Assembly: GCA_964291265.2 (NCBI GenBank)
Contig: OZ219747.1
Coordinates: 1,184,001-1,248,000 of the forward strand
DNA from: Alphaproteobacteria bacterium
Lineage (GTDB): Bacteria > Pseudomonadota > Alphaproteobacteria > SP197
DNA: 64,000 nt
Direction of reading: 5' to 3'
Every line of letters begins with the position of its first letter. Within the stretch, counting starts at the first letter, position 1. A model generated the notes under the pieces. That model saw only the letters and a program-made list of their open reading frames with translations, was not told the DNA's origin and made no database searches. Positions 49,386 to 60,951 of this stretch are shown piece by piece. The translations under genes and the position numbers were made by a program.

Positions 49386-50975
49386 TCAAGGAACGATGCT
49401 GGCCCGGATGAGGTCGACCGCCTTCTCGCCTGCCATGATCGTGGGCGCGTTGAGATTGCCGCTGGTGATGGACGGAAAGATCGAACTGTCGACCACCCTC
49501 AGGCCGGAAAGGCCGCGGACCCGGCATTCGGGATCGACCACGGCAAGGTCGTCCGTTCCCATCCTGCACGTGGAACAGGGGTGGTAGCCGGTTTCGGCCT
49601 TGTGTCGTATCACTTCGTCGATGTCGGCGTCGCTCCGGGCGCCGTCCCAGGCGTCCGCTTCCCGTGTCCGGTAGGGGGCGAGGGCCGGCTGCATGGCGAT
49701 GTCGCGCGCCTGGCGGACGCACATCCTCAGATCTTCGAGGTCTGACGGCTCGCTCAGGAAGCGGAAATCAACGGCCGGCCGGATGGCGGGATCGGCAGAC
49801 CTGAGTCTCACCTCGCCACGACTGCGTTCCCGCAAGGTACCGACACATATGGTGAATCCGCCGGTATCGGACGGGATGTCGTGGTCACGGAGGAAGAACG
49901 GAAAGAAGTGATACTGGATGTCCGGGTGAGGCATGTCGTCGCGGGTCTTCGTGAAGGCGCCGGTGAAGACGGCGTTTGTGGCGCAGATGCCGCTCCGGTT
50001 CAGGAACCACCGGGCCCCGGCCATGGCCTTGGAGACCGGGCCGGCGTAGCGGTTGAGCGCATGGCGAACGGGTCCTTGGAACGGGATGTGAAGTTCGACG
50101 TGCTCCTGGAGATTCTGTCCGACACCGGGCAGGTCGTGACGCACGACGATTCCGAAGTCACGCAGGTGGAAGGCCGGACCGATGCCCGACAGCATCAGGA
50201 TGTGAGGCGAGCCGAACGGACCAGCCGACAGGACGACCTCCCGGGAGCAGTGCACGATCTCGATGTCTCGGCCCCGCCCAATCCTGACGCCGGTGGCGCG
50301 GTCCCCGTCGATCTCGATTCCGACAACCTCGGCATGGGTTCTGATATCGAGGTTGGGACGATGACGTGCGGGTTCGAGATAGGCGCTGGCCGTGCTGACG
50401 CGCCTGCCGTCGGCTATCGATGCATCGAACCGGCCCATGCCTTCCTGGTTCTCGCCGTTGAAGTCGTCGCTGCGGCGAAACCCCGCCTCGAGACCCGCCT
50501 CGACGAAGGCATCGCTCATCGGCAGGCGAAATGACAGGGGTCCTGTGTGCACCGGACCGCTTCCACCACGAAAGTCCGTTTCGCCGCCGGCGTGTGTCTC
50601 GAGCCTCTTGAAGAAAGGCAGCACCTGGCAAAACGACCAGCCTGTGGCGCCTTCGTCCTCCCAGCGATCGAAGTCCATCGGGTGACCCCTCAGGAACGCC
50701 ATGCCGTTGATGGCAGACGAGCCACCAAGTCCCTTGCCGCGGGGCTGGAAGATCCGCCGTCCCGCCAAGTTGTCCTGGGGTTCGGACCACCAGGCCCAGT
50801 TGTAGGGTCCCCCGGTCCAGTTGAGATAGTAGCCGAGTGGCATGTCGATTGACCAGTGCCGCGCCCTTCCGCCGGCCTCGAGCAGCAGCACCCGGACCTG
50901 CGGATCCTCGCTGAGGCGTGCTGCGATCACACTGCCCGACGATCCGGCTCCGACAACGATGTAATCCGGCGTCAT
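49386..50975 (-). CDS. GMC oxidoreductase (choline dehydrogenase-like)
   Basis: VGAGSSG, RGKGLGGSSAINGM, GVGQNLQEH, YHPCSTCRMG, GNLNAPTIM. Confidence 0.9.
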   Translation of the reverse strand: MTPDYIVVGAGSSGSVIAARLSEDPQVRVLLLEAGGRARHWSIDMPLGYYLNWTGGPYNWAWWSEPQDNLAGRRIFQPRGKGLGGSSAINGMAFLRGHPMDFDRWEDEGATGWSFCQVLPFFKRLETHAGGETDFRGGSGPVHTGPLSFRLPMSDAFVEAGLEAGFRRSDDFNGENQEGMGRFDASIADGRRVSTASAYLEPARHRPNLDIRTHAEVVGIEIDGDRATGVRIGRGRDIEIVHCSREVVLSAGPFGSPHILMLSGIGPAFHLRDFGIVVRHDLPGVGQNLQEHVELHIPFQGPVRHALNRYAGPVSKAMAGARWFLNRSGICATNAVFTGAFTKTRDDMPHPDIQYHFFPFFLRDHDIPSDTGGFTICVGTLRERSRGEVRLRSADPAIRPAVDFRFLSEPSDLEDLRMCVRQARDIAMQPALAPYRTREADAWDGARSDADIDEVIRHKAETGYHPCSTCRMGTDDLAVVDPECRVRGLSGLRVVDSSIFPSITSGNLNAPTIMAGEKAVDLIRASIVP

Positions 50976-51269
50976 GGCCCATACCAAGCGGCAAGTCGTG
51001 AAGGGAACAGCCCCCTGCACGAAGTCTGGCTTCGGGAGGCTCCTGCTCCGCGGACCATTCTGTCCTCTCCTGAAGACACGTGATGGATCATGTCAGCCCC
51101 TTGTGTACCGGATTTCAACTGTCGGCGGCGATTTAGAACGGCGGGATATTGGCGGAGAACCGCTCTTTTGGGCGCTGATCGTGTGAGTGGGTGACCACGA
51201 CAGGAGAACGTGCGGCATTGGACGAAGGTCCGCCCGGTCTTTGTTTTCTGCCTATTGTTGGATCCCATT

Positions 51270-51601
51270 GGTCTTGCATTGACGTTGACGATGTCGTTCC
51301 GGTCGGCGTTTTCTGGCGTTCGGCGTTTGTGGAACGTGATGTGGGAGGGGAGCTTCAGGCTTTTGCGCGTGGTTTCGTTCTGGCGTTTTCCGGCCTCGTC
51401 GTGGTTCGTCGGGCGGGACGATCTCGAGGCTGGAGAGCTGACGGTTTCTGTTGCGCTGGGCGAAGAGGCTGCGTGCGTTGCGGTTGCGGCGGCGCAGGGT
51501 GCGGCAGGCGTCGAGTGTTTTCGGGCGGATGCTGCGACCTGTGAGCCAGTCCGGCGGCGGATCGGGCGTTGCTGCGGCTCAGCGGCTGCGGCAGTCTCGT
51601 G
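51270..51601 (-). repeat. Decayed, internally deleted copy of the TOPRIM gene (matches ~54510-54640 and ~54890-55082)
   Basis: GTGGGAGGGGAGCTTCA, TCCGGCCTCGTCGTGGT and GTGAGCCAGTCCGG are shared in collinear order. Confidence 0.85.
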
Positions 51602-51902
51602 ATGTGGTGTCGTTTGGACGGCCCGGGGGTTTCCCGGGGAGGCTGAGAGGCGCGTCGGGGTGAGACGTTCTCATTCCTGGATGGTAACGCGTGACCGCGT
51701 TCAAGGGTCTTGCGAGATTACGTGTCCCTTCCGTAGCCGCGTGGCGGTTCGATGTCCTCGAGAGCCTCGATGTCGGCATCGGCGACGATCTGCAGGCGTT
51801 CTCCGTAAGGCGTGTCACGGAGTAACTGCCCAGGTCTGATTTTGCCGAGTCCTGACGGGAGGTGGATTGATGGCTCCGGTCTGATGACGCCGAGGAGGGA
51901 TG

Positions 51903-53444
51903 TCAGAAGCGCAGTTTCGGGATCAGCTGTATGGGATCGGGGTGGGCCAGTGTTTCGAGGACATTCCAGCCCTGTTTTCGGGCGATGGAGATGACGGATC
52001 GCAGCTTGGCGAAGTCCCATGCGCCCTGCATGGATCGGAAGCCGCCCGAGATTTTCTGGCGCAGCTTGCTCATGCGGAAGTCTTGCTCGGCCTGGTTGTT
52101 GGAGAACGGGACTTGCGGGTTGGTGAGGAAGCGCAGGCAGCCGTCCTTGTGCTTCTGAAGGCGAAGCGCGAGGTTGTGGCCGATGCGGCGTTTTCGTCGT
52201 CCGCGCTTTCCGGGCTGGAGCGGCGGCCTCTGTTCGTGGGAAGCGATGGCCTGCTCGAGGATCCTGTCCCAGGCTTGCGAGATGCGGGCGAGGAGTGAAG
52301 CGGGGATGTCGCGGTCGTTCTTGCGGGCGAAGCGGGCGGCTCTGTTGGCACGGATGAGGAGCCTGTGCATGGCGGTGGCCCAGTCTTCCTTCTCGATCTC
52401 GATCAGAGCCTGGAGTTCGCGCAGGTGATGGGCGTTGCAGGCACCGTGGCGCACGCCCTCGAGAGTGAAGTAAGTGGCCAAGTCGTCATGGATGACGATG
52501 CCGTTGAGCGTCTCGTCGATGTGTTTGCGGCCGGTGGCGATGCGCAGGATGGTGAGCAAGGGGGTGCACAGCACATGGAGCCAGTGGGTCTGGCCGTTGA
52601 TGCGGATGCCGGTCTCGTCGAGGTGTTTGACCGGTGCTTGGGTGCGGATGATCTGCGCGACATGATCGAGGAAGCTCTCGAAGCGCCGGGCGGTGCGCCT
52701 GCCCATGGCGGCGATGGTGGCGGTTGAGATCCTGACGGCGAAGAGGTCGCTCATGACCTCGGCGACGCGCTTCTCGGGAATGAACTGGGCGTGCAACAGG
52801 TAGGTCACCCAGGCGGTGATGCGCGGCCCGTACTGGACCGGGGCGCTCACGCCGTGCGGGAAGGCGGCTGTTGTCACAGCGCCGCAGGCGGCGCAGAGAC
52901 AGCGATGGGCGCGATGTTCGGTGACCTCGAGGGGCTGCGGCTCGGGCATGTCGAAGACCTGCCGACAGACGGGTTCTGCGTGACGGTCATCATCCGACAG
53001 CGGTGCGCCGCAGCCCTTACAGGCAGACGGAGCATGATCGACGACATGGTCCGGGTTCTCGGCCTGCTTCAGGGTGACTCCCTCGTGGCCGCGCTGACCG
53101 CCACTGGGCCTGTCGGACTTGCCGCGCTGGCTCCGGGTGCGCTTCTGTCGGTTTCCGCTCTTCTTCTTCGGACCGTCGCTGGCCGGTGGCTTGGAGCTGG
53201 TGGAGCTGTCGAGCGCGGCGCTGCGCTCGAGTGCGTCAATCCGTTCGCGCAAGCCGGTGTTCTCCCGCTCCAGCGCCTCGATCTCCCCGACCAGCGCCTC
53301 ACTCAGGCGCAACATCCCCTGGCCCCAATCCCGGAGGGCCTTGACGGCAGTCACGGCGAAGGAGTGTGGACTGAACAGGTCCTGAAGGCCCACGAAGGCC
53401 TCGTCATGGGCGGCGATGTCCTCGCGCCAGCGCGAGACGGTCAC
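51903..53444 (-). CDS. IS66 family transposase (TnpC-like; no tnpA/tnpB helper genes seen)
   Basis: DSSTSSKPPASD, GGQRGHEG, CKGC...CAAC, HLDETG, CNAHHLREL, PFSNNQAEQDFR, KISGGFRS; GTG 53444 overlaps the MTase stop. Confidence 0.92.
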   Translation of the reverse strand: MTVSRWREDIAAHDEAFVGLQDLFSPHSFAVTAVKALRDWGQGMLRLSEALVGEIEALERENTGLRERIDALERSAALDSSTSSKPPASDGPKKKSGNRQKRTRSQRGKSDRPSGGQRGHEGVTLKQAENPDHVVDHAPSACKGCGAPLSDDDRHAEPVCRQVFDMPEPQPLEVTEHRAHRCLCAACGAVTTAAFPHGVSAPVQYGPRITAWVTYLLHAQFIPEKRVAEVMSDLFAVRISTATIAAMGRRTARRFESFLDHVAQIIRTQAPVKHLDETGIRINGQTHWLHVLCTPLLTILRIATGRKHIDETLNGIVIHDDLATYFTLEGVRHGACNAHHLRELQALIEIEKEDWATAMHRLLIRANRAARFARKNDRDIPASLLARISQAWDRILEQAIASHEQRPPLQPGKRGRRKRRIGHNLALRLQKHKDGCLRFLTNPQVPFSNNQAEQDFRMSKLRQKISGGFRSMQGAWDFAKLRSVISIARKQGWNVLETLAHPDPIQLIPKLRF

Positions 53445-54110
53445 GAACCCTCCCCGGCCTCGACGGCCATGATCGCCGCCAGCACGGCCAGACGTTCCCC
53501 CGGCGGCATGGCCTCGTAGCGCCGCCCCCAGTTGGCCGCCTTGCGCTTGATGCACTGGCGGGCGGTGAAGTTCCGCCCCGCGTAGCGCGACCAGTGCACC
53601 CGGTCGGGAGCAAAGTTGAACCATACCACCTCGGTCCGCACCTGGGCCTGGGTCGTCACCTGCAGCGCCACCCGGCGCCAGCCCGCCAGAAGATCGTCAT
53701 AGAGCGCTTCACGGGTGGCCCGAGACCATCACCTGGCAGGGCAGGCCCTTGAGCAGTTCAAGGAGCGCAACATGGTCCGCCTCCTCGTACTCGAAGCGGT
53801 AGCGCCGCGACGAACGCCGCGTCGCGTGCAGATAGGGCGGATCGCTGTAGACCAGCTCCGGACCCAGAAACGGGAACGAAGCCAGGAAGGAGTGAGCACA
53901 GTCGTGCACCAACTCCACCGGATAAGCGCACTCAAAGGCCTCAAGCGCACGCTCATCACGGTCAATCCCGATCGAGCGCTCCGACGCAGCCTTGCGCTTC
54001 ATCAGCGCTCCGCCCCCCAGATGGCTCTCGATATAGACAGAGTGCGGCGGCATCAGCGCAATCAGCGCCTGGCACAAACCCGGCGTCGCCTTCGATCCGA
54101 AGTACCCCAA
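53441..54110 (-). pseudogene. D12-class N6-adenine DNA methyltransferase (Dam-like), broken near 53709
   Basis: YFGSK, YIESHLGGG, YSDPPY, VMVSG; after CCG-TGA-A the next frame continues ALYDDLLAGWRR...RTEVVWFNF. Confidence 0.85.
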
Positions 54111-54138
54111 CGGCCGCCCCCCTCATGACAGAGGGCAA

Positions 54139-54167
54139 CTCATAGGCTCACCGGCCTAGTAAGTCAA
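54139..54167 (-). promoter_or_regulatory. Sigma70-like promoter inside the IS66 end, facing the MTase-transposase pair
   Basis: TTGACT-17 bp-TATGAG on the minus strand, ~30 bp upstream of the MTase TTG start. Confidence 0.55.
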
Positions 54168-54484
54168 GACGCGCAGAATCAACAAAGCGACGACACCAAA
54201 ACCGCACCCAACGCAACCAACGTCAACACAGACTCAGACCTGGCGGGGTACCTGGGCAGTTACGTCACGGAGGCTTTCGGGGATGCTGTCGAGGTGGTCA
54301 CGCCATTCGTCCTGCAGGGCGCGCAGTTCGGCCACGGCGTCGTTCCAGCGTTGCGGTCGCGAGCGCCGGTCACGGTGCTTTGGGGTGTGGACGGGAGGGA
54401 TGCCGGCCTTGCGCCGTTCCCGGTATCGCCGCTGCTTTTCGGCGGGCGTGAGGGGCATGAGTGGTCTCCTTGTGACGGACGTGG

Positions 54485-55378
54485 TCATGATCTCGCTTGT
54501 GGTTCTTTGGTCCTGGCGTTGACGACGTCGTTCCAGTCGGCGTTTTCCGGCGGTCTGCGTCTGTGGAACGAGACGTGGGAGGGGAGCTTCATCTTTTTGC
54601 GCAGGGTTTCGGCCTGTCGCTCTCCGGCCTCGTCGTGGTCCTGGGCGAGGACGATGGTCCTGACGTTGGGCAGGCTGCTTGCGGCGAGGCTGATCTGTTC
54701 GTGCTGTCTTCGCGAGGGTGCCCCGGCGGTGGAGAGGAAGGCGTGGCTGGGGGGACATTGGTCGATCTGGGCCAGGCTGAGGGCGTCGACGGCGCTTTCG
54801 GTGATGACGAGGGCCTCGAGGTCCGCGGCGGTTCCGGCGCGGACGGCGAACAGGCTTCGGGTTCCACCGGTGGCGAAGCGTTTCGGTCCGTCGGGGGGAC
54901 CGATCTCGAAGCCGGTGAGCTTTCGCTTCCTGTTGCGATGGGCGAAGAGGACGCGTCCGTTGTGGTCGCGGCGGACCAGGGGGCGGCAGGTGTCGAGGGT
55001 CTCCGGGAGGATGCCGCGCCCGGTGAGCCAGTCCGGGGCCGCATCGGGCGTTGCCGCGGCCCAGAGGCTGCGGAAGTCGCGTGGCGCGGCGTCGGGTGCT
55101 GCGAAGCGGGTGCAGATGTCGGCGAAGGCCAGTCCGCGGTTGAGCATGAAGTCGATGACGGTTCCGTTGTCTTCATCGTTCTGGGTGTTGAAGTAGACCC
55201 AGTGTCCGTTGTTGAGGCACTTCGTGACGAGCTTCGGCAGGCCGGGTGCGCACAGGACGGGGTTGGCGCGTGTCGAGGCCTGTTCGTCGCGGACGTATCC
55301 CCAGTCGGCGGCGATGCGTTCGAACGGCATGCGCTTGACGGCGTCGAAGTCGACGCGGCGGGGTTTATCGGGTTTCAC
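54485..55378 (-). CDS. TOPRIM-domain (DUF3991-like/primase-like) protein
   Basis: GTVIDF N-terminal motif; LVITESAVDALS (catalytic E) and LAQDHDEAG (DxD); start overlaps the istB 3' end. Confidence 0.82.
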   Translation of the reverse strand: MKPDKPRRVDFDAVKRMPFERIAADWGYVRDEQASTRANPVLCAPGLPKLVTKCLNNGHWVYFNTQNDEDNGTVIDFMLNRGLAFADICTRFAAPDAAPRDFRSLWAAATPDAAPDWLTGRGILPETLDTCRPLVRRDHNGRVLFAHRNRKRKLTGFEIGPPDGPKRFATGGTRSLFAVRAGTAADLEALVITESAVDALSLAQIDQCPPSHAFLSTAGAPSRRQHEQISLAASSLPNVRTIVLAQDHDEAGERQAETLRKKMKLPSHVSFHRRRPPENADWNDVVNARTKEPQARS

Positions 55379-56066
55379 GCCTGAGCCGCCAGGAGTCGCT
55401 GTCGATGGAGATGAGGGTTGCGTCGTGCATGAGCCGGTCGACGGTGCCGGCGATGCCGGAGGCGCTGGGGAAGACGCGGTCCCACTGGGCGAAGGCGAGG
55501 CTTGTCGTGACCATGGTCGAGCGGCGCTGATAGCGCCGCGAGACGATGGCGTAGAGGATGTCGGCATGGTGGCTTTCGAGGGTCACGTAGCCGATTTCGT
55601 CGAGGATGAGCAGGCGGGGCCTGGCGAGGATCGCGAGGCGGCGGCGCAGCTCGCTGCGCGAGACGGTCTCGGCGAGTGCCTCGAGCAGTTCCGGCGCCTT
55701 CTCGAAGCGGACGGTGTGGCCGTGCAGCAGGGCCTGGTGCGCCACGTTGGCGGCGATCATGGTCTTTCCGGTGCCCTGCCCGCCGACGAGCACGGCGTTG
55801 TCCGCACGGTCGACGAAGCCGAGGCCGAGGAGCGCTTCGACATGAGCCCGGCTGATGTCGCGCGGCCATGTCCAGTCGAAGTCCGCCAGGGGCTTGAAGG
55901 CGGGCAGCCGCGCCGCGGCGCGGCGGCGCTCGTGGCTGCGGGCCCTGCGGGCCTGTTCCTCGCCGCTGACCACCTCCTCGATCCATGCGGTCCCGGCGAC
56001 CTCGTCCCAGCGTTCGACGAGCCCGTGGAGGCCGAGCGCCCGGGCACGCTCCCTGAGCTCGCTCAT
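55365..56066 (-). CDS. istB: IS21-family helper ATPase
   Basis: DFDWTWP, Walker A GGQGTGKT, Walker B LLILDEIGY, VDRLMH, SWR; ATGA overlap with istA. Confidence 0.9.
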   Translation of the reverse strand: MSELRERARALGLHGLVERWDEVAGTAWIEEVVSGEEQARRARSHERRRAAARLPAFKPLADFDWTWPRDISRAHVEALLGLGFVDRADNAVLVGGQGTGKTMIAANVAHQALLHGHTVRFEKAPELLEALAETVSRSELRRRLAILARPRLLILDEIGYVTLESHHADILYAIVSRRYQRRSTMVTTSLAFAQWDRVFPSASGIAGTVDRLMHDATLISIDSDSWRLRRETR

Positions 56067-57556
56067 GTCTTGTTCCTGGCGCTGGCTTCGGGCCTGTCGT
56101 AGGCGTCGAGAGCGGTCCCCCGCGGCGTCGTGCCACGGCCGCCGCGGCCGTCGTCGGCGATGCTGAGGGGCGGCAGGCCCTGCTCCCGGCGGCGCTCTTC
56201 GATGATGACGCGCACGGTTTCGGGGTGGCACGAGCCGCGCTCCAGCGCCGTGGCGACAGCCCGGTCGAGAGCGTCGGCGCCGTGCGCGTTGAGAAGCGTC
56301 TCCAGCATCCGGGCGCAGGAGGCCACGTTGCGCCCGTTGGTCCCGGCGCGCGCCAGCATCTCCTCGGCCCGCGGCACGGTGCGCAGGACCCGGTCGCGGA
56401 CGCTCATGGAGCGGGCCCGCCGCTTGCCCGCGGCGATCGCCCTGGCATGCTCCGGATCGGTGACGGCCTGCTTCCTGTCGTAGGAGCGTCGGTGGCGCGC
56501 GACCTCGTCGGCGCCGTCGAGGATGCGAACCTCGTCGCGGTCGGCGACCAGCGTCAGCAGGGCCTTGGAGAAGCTACCCGGAACGCTGTAGTCGTTGGTG
56601 TCGAAGCGGGCGTGGCAGGTCTTGTCGATGCGCACCGGGCGGACCTCGTGATGCGGGAAGGGATCGGCGGGAAGGACGATCAGGTGCTCCCTCTCCCGGG
56701 CGAAGGCGTCCCGCACCAGGAGACTGTCGTCGTCCGGCCAGGGCCGCTCCGCGGCGGCGCCGAAGCACCACTCCCGAACCGCGGCGTTGAGCTCGCCGAG
56801 CGGGACCGTGATGTCGCGCCCGGCGAAGAACCCGGTGCGCGCGAAGCGCACACGGCGTTCCACGCGGCCCTTCTCCTGCGGGCTCCTGGGCCAGGCGGCG
56901 CTCGGTTCGAAGGCATAGTGGGCCGCGAGGCCGAGCAGCATCGGATGATAGGTGACCGCCTTGCCGCGGCGCGTCACCACGGCACTCTTCAGGTTGTCGT
57001 ACAGAAGCCTCCGCGGCACACCCCCGAATGCCGCGAAAGCCTCGACATGGCCTTGCAGGAAGCTGGCCATCCGCGCGTCGTGGAACAGGCTCAGGACAGT
57101 CTGGCGCGAGTAGCTGAGGGTGACGAGAAGCCCCATGAGCCTGCGCTCCGCCCGGCCAATGCGGACCTTCCCGAACTCGGCCCAGTCAACCTGCGCCTGC
57201 TCGCCCGGAAGGAAGCTCAGCCGCAGCGACGGCTCGGGCCTCTTCACCGGCCTCAGCCCGAGGCGGCGCAGGTCGTGACGGAAGTGATCCTCGCCGCCGC
57301 GGTAGCCCAGGGCCACGACCTGTCGCCAGAGCGTGCTGGCCGGAAGGTCCGGCGACGCCTCAAGACGCTCCCCGAGGAAGGCAACGAAGGGGTCGATGAG
57401 CTTGGCCCGCGGCCGCCGCTCCTGCCCCGACGCCTTGAGCGCCCGCGTCACCGTGCCGTGGTGCACGCCGAGATGCCGGGCAATCGTCCCCACAGCCCAG
57501 CCCTCGGCCCGCGACAGCCGCACGATCGTCGCCCGCGTGTCCTCGTCGATCGCCAT
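56063..57556 (-). CDS. istA: IS21-family DDE transposase
   Basis: HTH TIARHLGVHHGTV, PGEQAQVDW, LSYSR, LYDNLKSAV, EKGRVER, FDTNDYSVP. Confidence 0.92.
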   Translation of the reverse strand: MAIDEDTRATIVRLSRAEGWAVGTIARHLGVHHGTVTRALKASGQERRPRAKLIDPFVAFLGERLEASPDLPASTLWRQVVALGYRGGEDHFRHDLRRLGLRPVKRPEPSLRLSFLPGEQAQVDWAEFGKVRIGRAERRLMGLLVTLSYSRQTVLSLFHDARMASFLQGHVEAFAAFGGVPRRLLYDNLKSAVVTRRGKAVTYHPMLLGLAAHYAFEPSAAWPRSPQEKGRVERRVRFARTGFFAGRDITVPLGELNAAVREWCFGAAAERPWPDDDSLLVRDAFAREREHLIVLPADPFPHHEVRPVRIDKTCHARFDTNDYSVPGSFSKALLTLVADRDEVRILDGADEVARHRRSYDRKQAVTDPEHARAIAAGKRRARSMSVRDRVLRTVPRAEEMLARAGTNGRNVASCARMLETLLNAHGADALDRAVATALERGSCHPETVRVIIEERRREQGLPPLSIADDGRGGRGTTPRGTALDAYDRPEASARNKT

Positions 57557-57588
57557 GAACTCCCTCCCTTTGGTTCCTCAACGCCGCA

Positions 57589-58065
57589 TCACAGGTCCCT
57601 CAGCACCACATGCGTCACGACCCGTCCGCACCGGGCGCACCGAAGCGGCGATTCGCGCCGCTCTCGCGCCTTCACAACCGCAGGTAGGGAGGTCGGCAGC
57701 AGTCGGGAAGGGTGGTCCGTAACGATTTCTTCAGAACCGGCGTCTCCAGACACCGCCGGAACGTCGCCAAGCAGCACCACAGCAGACGTCTGCGTGTCCA
57801 TGATCTCGGCAACCATCGCCGCCCTGGCCTTCAACGCACGCGCCTCCTCCGCCTTGCGGAGCCGGTAACGCCGCTGGCGGTGACGGCCCGTCTCACGGCC
57901 CTTCAGCGTGCTCTGGTAGCGACGACGCGACGCGCGGCGCCGCTCGATCCGGGACCGCTCCCTGCACTCCTTGGAGCAATACACATGCCCCCGGTCACAC
58001 GACCGGCAGAGAACAACCTGCCGCTGACACCGCCTGCAGTTGAACAGTCGTCCTGTCGTGCACAC
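57589..58065 (-). CDS. Cys-rich Zn-finger/basic hypothetical protein upstream of istA
   Basis: CRRC..VVLCRSCDRGHVYCSKEC, Arg-rich helix, C-terminal CARCG; start approximate. Confidence 0.75.
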   Translation of the reverse strand: MCTTGRLFNCRRCQRQVVLCRSCDRGHVYCSKECRERSRIERRRASRRRYQSTLKGRETGRHRQRRYRLRKAEEARALKARAAMVAEIMDTQTSAVVLLGDVPAVSGDAGSEEIVTDHPSRLLPTSLPAVVKARERRESPLRCARCGRVVTHVVLRDL

Positions 58066-58383
58066 CGTCCGTCTCGAGAGCGGGGGTGGACCCGGACGCA
58101 AAATGGCTCGACAATACACGGGAGTTCGGTCCCCCGTGACCGGCTCGTCCGGGTGCTGCGCCGGGGGGCGTCACAACTCCGCCCGGCATCGCATCGCTCT
58201 TTCTCTTGATGCCGATCTAGCATCCACCCGGGGCGGCGGCAAAGACGCCGCCCCGGGACCGGACAACGCGACCCGCCCACAGGGAAGACAAACAATCCCG
58301 CGAGTGCCTCGGAACCGGAACCCTCCCGGCAACCGTCACCAAGACCGAAGCAGAGGTCGACGGAACCCGAACCGGACCAAAAC

Positions 58384-58500
58384 GACAATAGGAAAAGACG
58401 GCGGCGCTCGGGGAGACAACCAGCCGAACACTCAAACCACGACAACAGGACGTGACAATAGGACCTGACAACAGGGAAGAAACACGACCCTGACAAAGCG
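58384..58500. repeat. Subterminal short direct repeats GACAAYAGG
   Basis: Copies at 58384, 58441, 58454 and 58467 (last three have a 13-bp period); weaker copies at 58415 and 58492. Confidence 0.7.
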
Positions 58501-59488
58501 CGGCAAATCGCCGAAATCCCGCCGTTCTATGCAGCCATCAACATTTCAACCATGCATCGCAATTCGATGGCGGATCGGCACAGGCCCGGTCCAAGCTACT
58601 TCTCGCGTTCCGGAAGGAAACCCAATGGTCTCGTCAACTCATGGTGTTGGTGGGAATTCCGGGGCGTGTTGCCGTGTGACGGCCCGATCGGCATCAATGC
58701 CAGACGTCCGCGTCAGCGGTCGGCATGTGGGAGACATGCAGGTGGCGCACCTTGATCGCATGAAGTCGTGGCCCTGAGCCTACGGATGACGTCATCAATC
58801 TGCTCCTGACACTCTGCTAGACAGAGCTCTGGACGCCGGCCAGGCCCCTCGCCGATTCCTGCATCGCCCTGGTGTCTCTGGCCGCCGTTCATCGCCGGGA
58901 TGACAACTGTTTCGGTCTGTCGGCGCGGGATTTCCGCCGCATTGCGACGAATGACCGGGATGTCATCCGGAGTCACCATTCCGGCGACCATGACCGCACC
59001 GGTCTCCAACAGGGTCTCAACCTGATCCTGTCCTTTGATCGTCCTAGCGAACTGGTCATACAAGGCCGGTGAACCCGGATCCATCGGGCCAACTCGCTGT
59101 TCATTCTTGGGCGGATCGCCGCCCGACGAGATGGAACGGGCCAGTCAACTGGGCGAAGTCCGTCAGGGCCACGTTGCTGCGGTCGCATTCCAGCGTTCCC
59201 GCGCCCGCAGCCATGGCATGCATGTTGCCGACACAGGCGTGACGGACCGTCACGCCATGGCTGGCGGGTGGCGCGATGATCTCGATCCGGAAATGCCTGA
59301 AGCCTGTTGTCAAGGCAGCGGGACGCGCCATCGCGCTCTTCGTGGTCGATGACAGGATCCATGCCACGGATTGCTGCCGTTCCCACATGCCTGTCAGGTC
59401 AGGGCTCTTCTTTTGTCCGGTTTCGTCCGATGAAGGGGCGTTGTAGGTAGATCTGGAGGTCCATTCGGGACAGGATTTCGTTGTCGAT

Positions 59489-59997: not shown

Positions 59998-60951
59998 ATG
60001 ATTCTCGATGACAAGCTGCGCTCGGGCGATCCGATCGTTCTCGATGGGGCCACGGGCACGGAAATTGCCCGGCTGGGAGGCGCCATGAACAGTGCCGCCT
60101 GGTGCGGCGCCGCCAACAAGACCCACCCCGACATCGTCAGAGGGGTTCACGAGGCCTACATCGAGGCGGGATGCGACGTGGTGATCACCAACACCTTCGG
60201 TACCTGCCGTCATGTGCTCGCCGGGGCGGGACTGGCAGACGAGACCGTCGCCATCAACCGGCGGGCTGTCGAACTGGCGCGTGAAGCCGTCGAGTCCGTG
60301 GGACCATCGAAGCCTGTTGCCGTGGCCGGATCCATGTCGACCATGTATGCTTGGAAGGAGGGTACCGTCCATGCGGATCCCGCCTATCTGCCGGACCGGG
60401 AGACGGAAGCCGGCAACTTCGTCGAGATGGCCGAGACACTCGCCGCCGCCGGCGTGGATGTCCTTGTCCTGGAAATGATGCTGGATACCCACAGTGCGGG
60501 CCGTTGCGTCGAGGCTGCCGTCGCCACGGGGCTGCCGGTCTGGGTGGGGATCAGTTGCATCGACGATGATGACGGCAACCTTGTGGGCTGGGACGACATC
60601 CAGTCCAGAGAGAAGGCGAGGCCGCCGGGCCTCGCAGAGATCATCGACGCCCTCATGGACAAGGGCGGCGATGTCTACGGGATCATGCATTCCACGGCGG
60701 ATGTCACCGGTCCTGCACTCGAGTGCCTGGCCCGCCGCTGGCAGGGACCGGTCATGGCCTATCCGGAAACCCTCCAGACCTTTGACCGGCGAACGCATCG
60801 CACCACTGAATCCCTGACGCCGGACGAGTTTGCCCGGTCCTGTCTGGCGTGGCTCGACAGCGGTGTCAGCATCATAGGCGGCTGTTGTGGCACCACGATC
60901 GATCACATCCGTGCGCTGGTCCGCCATATGAAGGCCAGGGCCTCAGGATAG
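59998..60951 (+). CDS. Homocysteine S-methyltransferase family protein
   Basis: VLDGATGTE, H.AYIEAG.DVVITNTF, VAGSM, IIGGCCGT; AGGAGGAG RBS. Confidence 0.92.
   Translation: MILDDKLRSGDPIVLDGATGTEIARLGGAMNSAAWCGAANKTHPDIVRGVHEAYIEAGCDVVITNTFGTCRHVLAGAGLADETVAINRRAVELAREAVESVGPSKPVAVAGSMSTMYAWKEGTVHADPAYLPDRETEAGNFVEMAETLAAAGVDVLVLEMMLDTHSAGRCVEAAVATGLPVWVGISCIDDDDGNLVGWDDIQSREKARPPGLAEIIDALMDKGGDVYGIMHSTADVTGPALECLARRWQGPVMAYPETLQTFDRRTHRTTESLTPDEFARSCLAWLDSGVSIIGGCCGTTIDHIRALVRHMKARASG

Follow-up and report, generated by a model that had tools for sequence, protein, structure and literature searches.

The 64,000-nucleotide stretch of alphaproteobacterial DNA analysed here (GenBank assembly GCA_964291265.2, contig OZ219747.1, positions 1,184,001 to 1,248,000; hereafter the window, whose own numbering we use) holds a copy of a multicopy insertion sequence (IS) of the IS21 family, in which a gene for a DUF3991-TOPRIM protein follows the two transposition genes. 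Alignment of the two ends, together with reading of the flanks, places the element at 51120 to 58543, a length of 7424 bp, with TGT...ACA termini. An earlier sequence-only reading of this DNA had given the span as 51134..58529, 14 bp short at each end, and had reported neither clear TG...CA ends nor a target-site duplication. The terminal inverted repeats occupy 51120..51170 at the gene-distal end, which begins TGT and is conserved among eight aligned elements, and 58493..58543 at the gene-proximal end, where ACA closes the plus strand. A 7-bp target-site duplication, TTTCAAC, flanks the element on the left (51113..51119) and on the right (58544..58550). In run X2, a contig joins 51111 to 58543 and omits 7431 bases, the combined length of the element and a single duplication copy (7424 + 7), and the insertion site is therefore polymorphic, with an empty-site allele.

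The inverted repeats enclose five co-oriented minus-strand open reading frames (ORFs), as had been described, although only four of them belong to the conserved unit and the fifth is split by a nested IS66 element that accounts for 2.44 kb of the span and had escaped notice. The first gene, 57589..58065, is Cys-rich, Arg-rich and Zn-finger-like, with eight invariant Cys across 10 elements; the conserved GTG at 58065, not 58119, is its most likely start. It is followed by istA (56063..57556), the IS21 DDE transposase (NCBIfam NF033546, 223 bits, cut-off 160), whose catalytic residues D124, D187 and E233 are conserved in 98-100% of 120 homologues. The AAA+ helper ATPase gene istB (55365..56066) matches Pfam IstB_IS21 PF01695 at 172 bits (cut-off 24) and NF038214 at 192 bits, slightly below the cut-off of 200, and its product has a Walker A motif, GGQGTGKT, at residue 95 and a Walker B motif, LILDE, at residue 153.

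The fourth gene (54485..55381), which we call toprim, encodes a 298-residue DUF3991-Toprim_2 protein with a predicted T7/DnaG-type primase catalytic fold; it scores 50 bits against Toprim_2 (cut-off 22), and its DUF3991 match (E 6e-4) is below the cut-off in the window copy. The last four genes overlap tightly, and here the sequence-only reading was accurate: ATGA joins istA to istB and toprim to the small gene behind it, while istB and toprim share 17 bp if the stop codon is counted and 14 bp if it is not. That small basic gene encodes 106 residues in uninterrupted copies. Its first 76 codons, formerly taken for a complete small protein, lie at 54264..54488, and its 3' part has been cut off by the IS66 element and lies at 51718..51821. 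No Pfam or NCBIfam family matches it above cut-off, and an atlas look-up returned an unnamed cluster only.

In the source genome, 36 pairings could be made from 46 left and 39 right ends, and exclusion of three nested mis-pairs (c3, c30 and c34) left 33 clean copies, 32 of 4971-5347 bp plus the window copy. Target duplications accompany 28 of the 33 (22 of 5 bp, four of 6 bp and two of 7 bp). All 33 copies have full-length genes for IstA, IstB and TOPRIM, whose products are 99-100% identical between copies, with a stop in one toprim. The element is thus high-copy and recently mobile. Every istB match in the source genome is followed by toprim sequence (38/38, two of them interrupted by nested insertions). 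We considered a non-autonomous derivative lacking toprim and rejected it: there is none among the 38 istB matches, and the 10 left ends without a partner are short remnants.

The gene-distal part of the element varies. Duplicated toprim and small-gene sequence, now decayed, is found at this far end of the copies; in the window copy the decayed second toprim (51280..51612, minus strand) is internally deleted, with two segments that are 85% and 81% identical to the main gene and the catalytic middle gone. Most copies also have an extra 346-bp tandem duplication at the far end, which is absent from the window copy and two others.

The arrangement is not unique to the window copy. The four-gene unit was found in 13 other assemblies. 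Among 51 loci with the TOPRIM protein, istB lies directly upstream in 41, from 10 assemblies, and the remaining 10 have a toprim fragment and no istB; three genomes of the same genus (G004, G009 and G016) extend this set. In five other genomes toprim sequence follows all 41 of 41 istB matches, a figure that speaks for retention within genomes only, since those genomes were picked for holding toprim. Six related elements delimited by copy comparison (~4046-4640 bp) have related TGT...ACA ends, and toprim is inside the true ends of each of them, as it is in the copies of the source genome. The small basic gene was detected in 3 of the 51 related loci, and the elements L002, L034 and L087 stop ~150-170 bp past the toprim stop, with no space for it. 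A five-gene core is rejected on both counts; by these comparisons the conserved unit is the Zn-finger gene, istA, istB and toprim, and the small ORF is a variable passenger. IstA identity among the related elements is 49-82%, and near-identical members of the clade are patchily distributed over families. Broad samples yielded few matches: the Zn-finger profile hit 2 of 400 genomes of the phylum, and IstB at E 1e-60 hit 1 of 400 genomes of the class.

The toprim gene is under selection, with constraint close to that on istA. Over 45 pairs from 10 elements, the median ratio of nonsynonymous to synonymous change (dN/dS) is 0.44 for toprim and 0.37 for both istA and istB, and it is 0.59 for the Zn-finger gene over 36 pairs; these values come from Nei-Gojobori counting, which is rough in GC-rich DNA. 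Joint descent of IstA and TOPRIM, which had been put forward as a check, largely holds, with six of seven tree splits in common for IstA/TOPRIM, six of seven for IstA/IstB and five of seven for IstB/TOPRIM, at moderate supports. A passive hitch-hiker, trapped between the ends by a single event and transported since without any function, would suit an end region that readily gains and loses DNA, as the decayed toprim duplicate, the tandem 346-bp repeat and the variable small gene illustrate. This explanation is nevertheless very improbable. Ratios far below 1 and near that of istA, over elements only 49-82% identical in IstA, speak against it, the active-site residues are invariant, the toprim duplicate has decayed when the main copy has not, and other transposons have made captures of their own (see below).

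Our structure model of the TOPRIM protein (pLDDT 92.8) suggests what is being maintained. Residues 97-293 of the model match T7 primase best (1nui_B, Z 15.5, rmsd 3.5, 180 aligned residues), followed by Aquifex DnaG, Twinkle and other DnaG cores; the DnaG matches score Z 11.6-13.4, and topoisomerases score Z <=10.8. Foldseek likewise matches the model to 2au3 (E 6e-8). The modelled protein has the fold of a T7/DnaG-type primase RNA-polymerase domain, a beta subdomain plus TOPRIM. Across 59 family members at E 0.1, Toprim_2 matches 59 and DUF3991 matches 54.

The catalytic positions can be followed by a profile alignment to T7 gp4, which equates E195, D199, D248, D250, K167 and R175 of the window copy with E157, D161, D207, D209, K128 and K137 of the T7 protein. 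D282 probably corresponds to T7 D237, which is outside the aligned stretch. The window copy has all of these residues as well as R122 and N284, so the TOPRIM glutamate and DxD motif that the sequence-only reading had called intact (E195, D248, D250) are indeed present. About 50 proteins (90% clustering) are at least 50% identical to the TOPRIM protein; in a set of 31 at that identity, for part of which the genomic context is known, E195, D248, D250, D282, N284, R122 and R175 are invariant and position 167 is K or R in 30 of 31. The clade is apparently intact at most catalytic positions.

Based on these observations, we propose, with a probability of roughly 0.5, that the captured DUF3991-TOPRIM protein of this multicopy IS21-family element is a non-essential accessory primase that primes DNA synthesis on single-stranded transposition intermediates. 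A copy-out/paste-in route has been proposed for IS21 (excerpt of PMC11208146). On such a route the displaced transposon strand would have to be copied, and the TOPRIM protein could lay an RNA primer on that strand during copy-out, or in gaps. Its translation would be coupled to that of istAB by the istB overlap, and its activity would make transposition more productive where the host's own priming falls short. Priming of displaced-strand synthesis would be the most straightforward job for a primase translated together with IstA and IstB, and we give this step about even odds.

Several observations weigh against this proposal, beginning with the active site itself. D199 is kept in 16 of the 31 close relatives and is N in the other 15; the equivalent D161 was reportedly found to be needed in T7 primase by Lee and Richardson in 2005. 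The T7 R124 position is G, A, S or T in all 31 (G in the window copy) and K in 27 of 27 conjugative outgroup proteins, and the T7 K122 position is E throughout the family, even as the K128 and K137 positions are basic. T7 K122 has been called essential (excerpt of PMC9198812). The N-terminal domain, whose residues 1-95 reach a pLDDT of 43 in a single-sequence model, has no conserved Cys or other zinc ligands; 11 of the 31 proteins have no Cys at all, and zf-CHC2 matched none of 59 family members at E 0.1. To these may be added the rough counting behind the dN/dS values, the moderate tree supports, the lack of any end-to-end junction in the genome and the existence of related elements that do without the gene.

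Those related elements are ten sisters, taken from 8 of 31 plasmid records and two genome loci, with IstA 41-47% identical to ours, and none of the ten has a TOPRIM match. They keep the Zn-finger gene, mostly unannotated, and istAB; in one of them another IS has displaced the Zn-finger gene. In seven of the ten (L224-L230) the fourth slot is occupied by an unnamed acidic ORF of 60-75 residues that overlaps the istB stop, and the captured toprim may have replaced this small fourth ORF of the subfamily. At locus L222, toprim is reduced to its first 88 residues. The large Zn-finger family (3238 clusters at 50% identity) contrasts with the ~50 close relatives of the TOPRIM protein. Because 10 of 10 sisters lack the gene, the Zn-finger-istA-istB backbone does not need it, and IstA and IstB of IS5376 perform integration in vitro (excerpt of PMC10122671). 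The earlier suggestion that TOPRIM is core machinery is thus not supported if core means required: toprim is a captured and retained accessory, not obligatory machinery. A tblastn search of plasmids with the Zn-finger and small proteins gave no match, but a hidden Markov model (HMM) does find the Zn-finger gene on the plasmid loci, so the blank reflects sensitivity.

The source of the gene was likely a conjugative element, judging from its relatives. We took the best 80 of 265 stretches with the nearest outside relatives, which are 30-40% identical; near them IstB gave one partial match in the 80 loci, many of which are short. At seven of nine long outgroup loci scanned, the neighbouring genes are for type IV secretion, a topoisomerase, an integrase or plasmid replication, and in six of nine plasmid regions the DUF3991-TOPRIM module adjoins relaxase or transfer genes or is fused to them. 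The IS21-linked TOPRIM proteins form one clade (100/99) adjoining conjugative proteins in an unrooted tree. Viral matches amounted to six weak loci (E 5e-8 to 5e-5).

This ancestry raises the alternative that toprim is selected cargo, a primase that makes incoming single-stranded DNA double-stranded after conjugation or transformation and thereby aids establishment of the IS in new cells. The relaxases and type IV secretion genes around its relatives fit such a role, as do the sisters that transpose without toprim and the patchy spread of near-identical clade members across families, and a rhizobial plasmid mutant shows joint up-regulation of tra genes and a DUF3991 gene (excerpt of PMC13055273). 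We consider cargo of this kind quite improbable, however, because toprim overlaps istB and, in three element types, is the last gene after the ATPase, which fits co-expression with the transposition proteins, and the element contains no transfer origin or relaxase.

The distribution of the copies bears on a further alternative, in which TOPRIM would be a domesticated accessory that binds DNA, either single-stranded or forked, and guides or controls IstB/IstA, sending them to other mobile elements for instance. Sixteen of the 33 copies lie within repeats of at least three copies, compared with 59 of 300 random sites (Fisher p=0.0006), and five are inserted inside their own element family. Target immunity seems weak or absent, because half of the copies, near enough, are inside other repeats and five inside their own kind. 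The repeat enrichment, the D199N change in 15 of 31 relatives, the basic residue lost at the T7 R124 position in all 31 and the missing zinc site all speak for such a role. A fork selector of the TnsE type, however, would give a replichore orientation bias, and there is none here, as 16 of 33 copies are co-oriented with the leading strand. Moreover, E195, D248, D250 and D282 are invariant in 31 of 31 proteins, and enrichment in repeats can arise from selection against insertions in genes. We therefore regard a DNA-binding role as unlikely. No target selector is reported for IS21 in the excerpt of PMC10293859, and if TOPRIM were a selector or regulator after all, it would be the first such IS21 accessory by that source.

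A last alternative takes the excised circle as a mini-replicon copied by its own primase, with IstB as initiator or loader, which resembles the sequence-only idea of a replicating circular intermediate. IstB is weakly similar to DnaC/DnaI loaders, the element has a conserved structured leader, and the genome has another type of element in which a primase occurs together with an AAA_25 ATPase. The leader is also present in a TOPRIM-less sister, though, and the element encodes neither a helicase nor a replication initiator. We found no end-to-end (circle or tandem) junction in the assembly nor among the contig joints of runs X1-X3, where contigs drop rare forms. The read-word depth in run X1, ~2000 across the element against ~60 on the flanks, is no measure of copy number and is roughly what 33-38 chromosomal copies give. 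We give a self-copying circle very little credence and return to the accessory primase as the preferred reading.

This preferred reading gains a wider setting from other transposons that carry DUF3991-TOPRIM genes. The first is a 4007-bp element (L072:2947-6953) with a Zn-finger-like ORF, an rve/Mu-C transposase, an AAA_22 ATPase and toprim; it has 15 matches in G005 and relatives in four other genomes of the same genus. Its toprim frame appears either to have no regular start or, in some copies (L081), to contain a frameshift. The second is a 5161-bp multicopy element of the source genome (L232:2043-7203, G000:C2:3192043-3197203), also found at L278, which encodes a Cys-rich ORF, an rve transposase, AAA_22, AAA_25 and DUF3991-TOPRIM and is represented by six transposase-toprim pairs in that genome; its RecA-like AAA_25 protein and TOPRIM possibly make up a helicase-primase pair inside a transposon. 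The third is a distant IS21 element of 3476 bp (L299:4056-7531, IstA 30% identical), with three copies 99.9% identical and a convergent toprim inside its ends; layouts related to it occur at L082, L287 and L301. The acidic residues are kept in four of four rows checked among these other toprims.

The toprim of the 3476-bp IS21 belongs to a second, ExeA-linked clade. The IS21-linked and ExeA-linked clades each have 99-100% bootstrap support, and a single clade for the two was rejected (AU p=0.004, 25-row quick tree). By these trees, the second IS21 lineage and two types of ExeA-ATPase transposon carry separately derived primases, and capture happened more than once. In three element types, toprim comes last, behind the ATPase. 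It is possible, and we offer it tentatively, that DDE-plus-ATPase transposons (at least two IS21 lineages plus an ExeA/Tn6049-like type) have repeatedly recruited conjugative primases to prime their own transposition replication and so form a self-priming class. If so, the catalytically intact IS21 clade would allow a direct test of the proposed copy-out step.

Comparison with known systems places the element as an IS21 variant that has the tested IS21 features except the two-ORF layout. Like IS21 and IS5376, it has a DDE transposase and an overlapping AAA+ helper in one operon, TG...CA inverted ends and mostly 5-bp duplications (22 of 33 here), the length given for many members (excerpt of PMC11208146), and its E233 is the catalytic Glu as in IS5376 IstA (excerpt of PMC10122671). 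Whereas the canonical form has two ORFs between its ends (same excerpt), ours has four conserved ones, with a Zn-finger gene and its structured leader added upstream of istAB and a primase-fold gene downstream, in a total of 4.0-5.3 kb. IS21 elements of proteobacterial plasmids, for instance those in NC_006823.1, NC_014911.1 and NZ_AP023183.1, share its backbone and gene order, with IstA 42-46% and IstB 44-49% identical, but have the acidic ORF in the fourth slot in place of TOPRIM.

Conjugative plasmids and integrative elements also encode DUF3991-Toprim_2 proteins, some of them fused to MobV or other relaxases, which are 27-38% identical to the TOPRIM protein and share its domain layout and acidic motifs. 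Their genes neighbour those for relaxases, type IV secretion, topoisomerase and tyrosine integrase, not istAB, and the proteins keep D199 and K161, both of which the IS21-linked clade changes. In the excerpts of literature naming DUF3991, we found no biochemical test of this family. T7 gp4 and DnaG share the catalytic fold and the aligned E, D and DxD residues; the TOPRIM protein differs from them in its lack of conserved zinc ligands and of a helicase or helicase-binding domain, and in its changed K122 and R124 positions. Tn6049 of Cupriavidus metallidurans and the ExeA-ATPase transposons are likewise compact pairs of DDE transposase and ATPase, and two ExeA-type elements carry DUF3991-TOPRIM last, but their transposase and ATPase families are others (rve/Mu-C, AAA_22) and their toprim is separately derived. 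The likeness to Tn6049 is drawn from its description; the excerpt of PMC2864759 mentions a GspA-like ATPase and no primase.

An IS21 variant with a retained primase-fold gene is apparently undescribed: no description of the IS21-primase arrangement was found in the literature searched, with ISfinder, TnCentral and subscription reviews outside the search. The transposition route of IS21 is only proposed (excerpt of PMC11208146). An apparently intact primase in a transposition operon, together with natural sisters lacking it, offers a ready paired test of how the replicative step in copy-out transposition is primed. Separate captures of one plasmid primase family by unrelated transposons point to a recurring selective pressure, of which we also found no description.

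Upstream of the transposition genes, the element has a candidate cis-regulatory RNA. The structured non-coding leader (58077..58200, minus strand), just upstream of the Zn-finger start, is predicted to form a three-way junction. In an alignment of 11 sequences, 37 predicted pairs have 95% of cells paired, and 10 pairs are changed on both sides; none of 500 shuffles scored as high, with the structure taken from the same alignment. Several changes from C-G to U-G favour an RNA form. The window leader alone folds no better than shuffles (z -0.26), so the structure is supported by the alignment only, and no Rfam family matched at E 1. The TOPRIM-less sister with the leader is L221. The leader is perhaps bound by the Arg-rich Zn-finger protein, whose family comprises 3238 clusters at 50% identity and is unnamed.

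The nested IS66-family element (51822..54263, minus strand, 2442 bp) splits the small basic gene, is flanked by an 8-bp duplication, GTCACGGA, and is not part of the IS21 unit. On the minus strand it contains a transposase gene (51903-53312), a 76-residue ORF (53441-53671) and a 133-residue ORF for a Dam-like adenine methyltransferase (53709-54110; weak D12/dam matches). The IS66 element is multicopy by itself, with ~7 near-identical copies in the genome and a second family at 62% identity. The IS21 insertion lies ~100 bp upstream of a GMC oxidoreductase gene (49386-51020, minus strand), and on the other flank is a homocysteine S-methyltransferase gene (59998-60951, plus strand).

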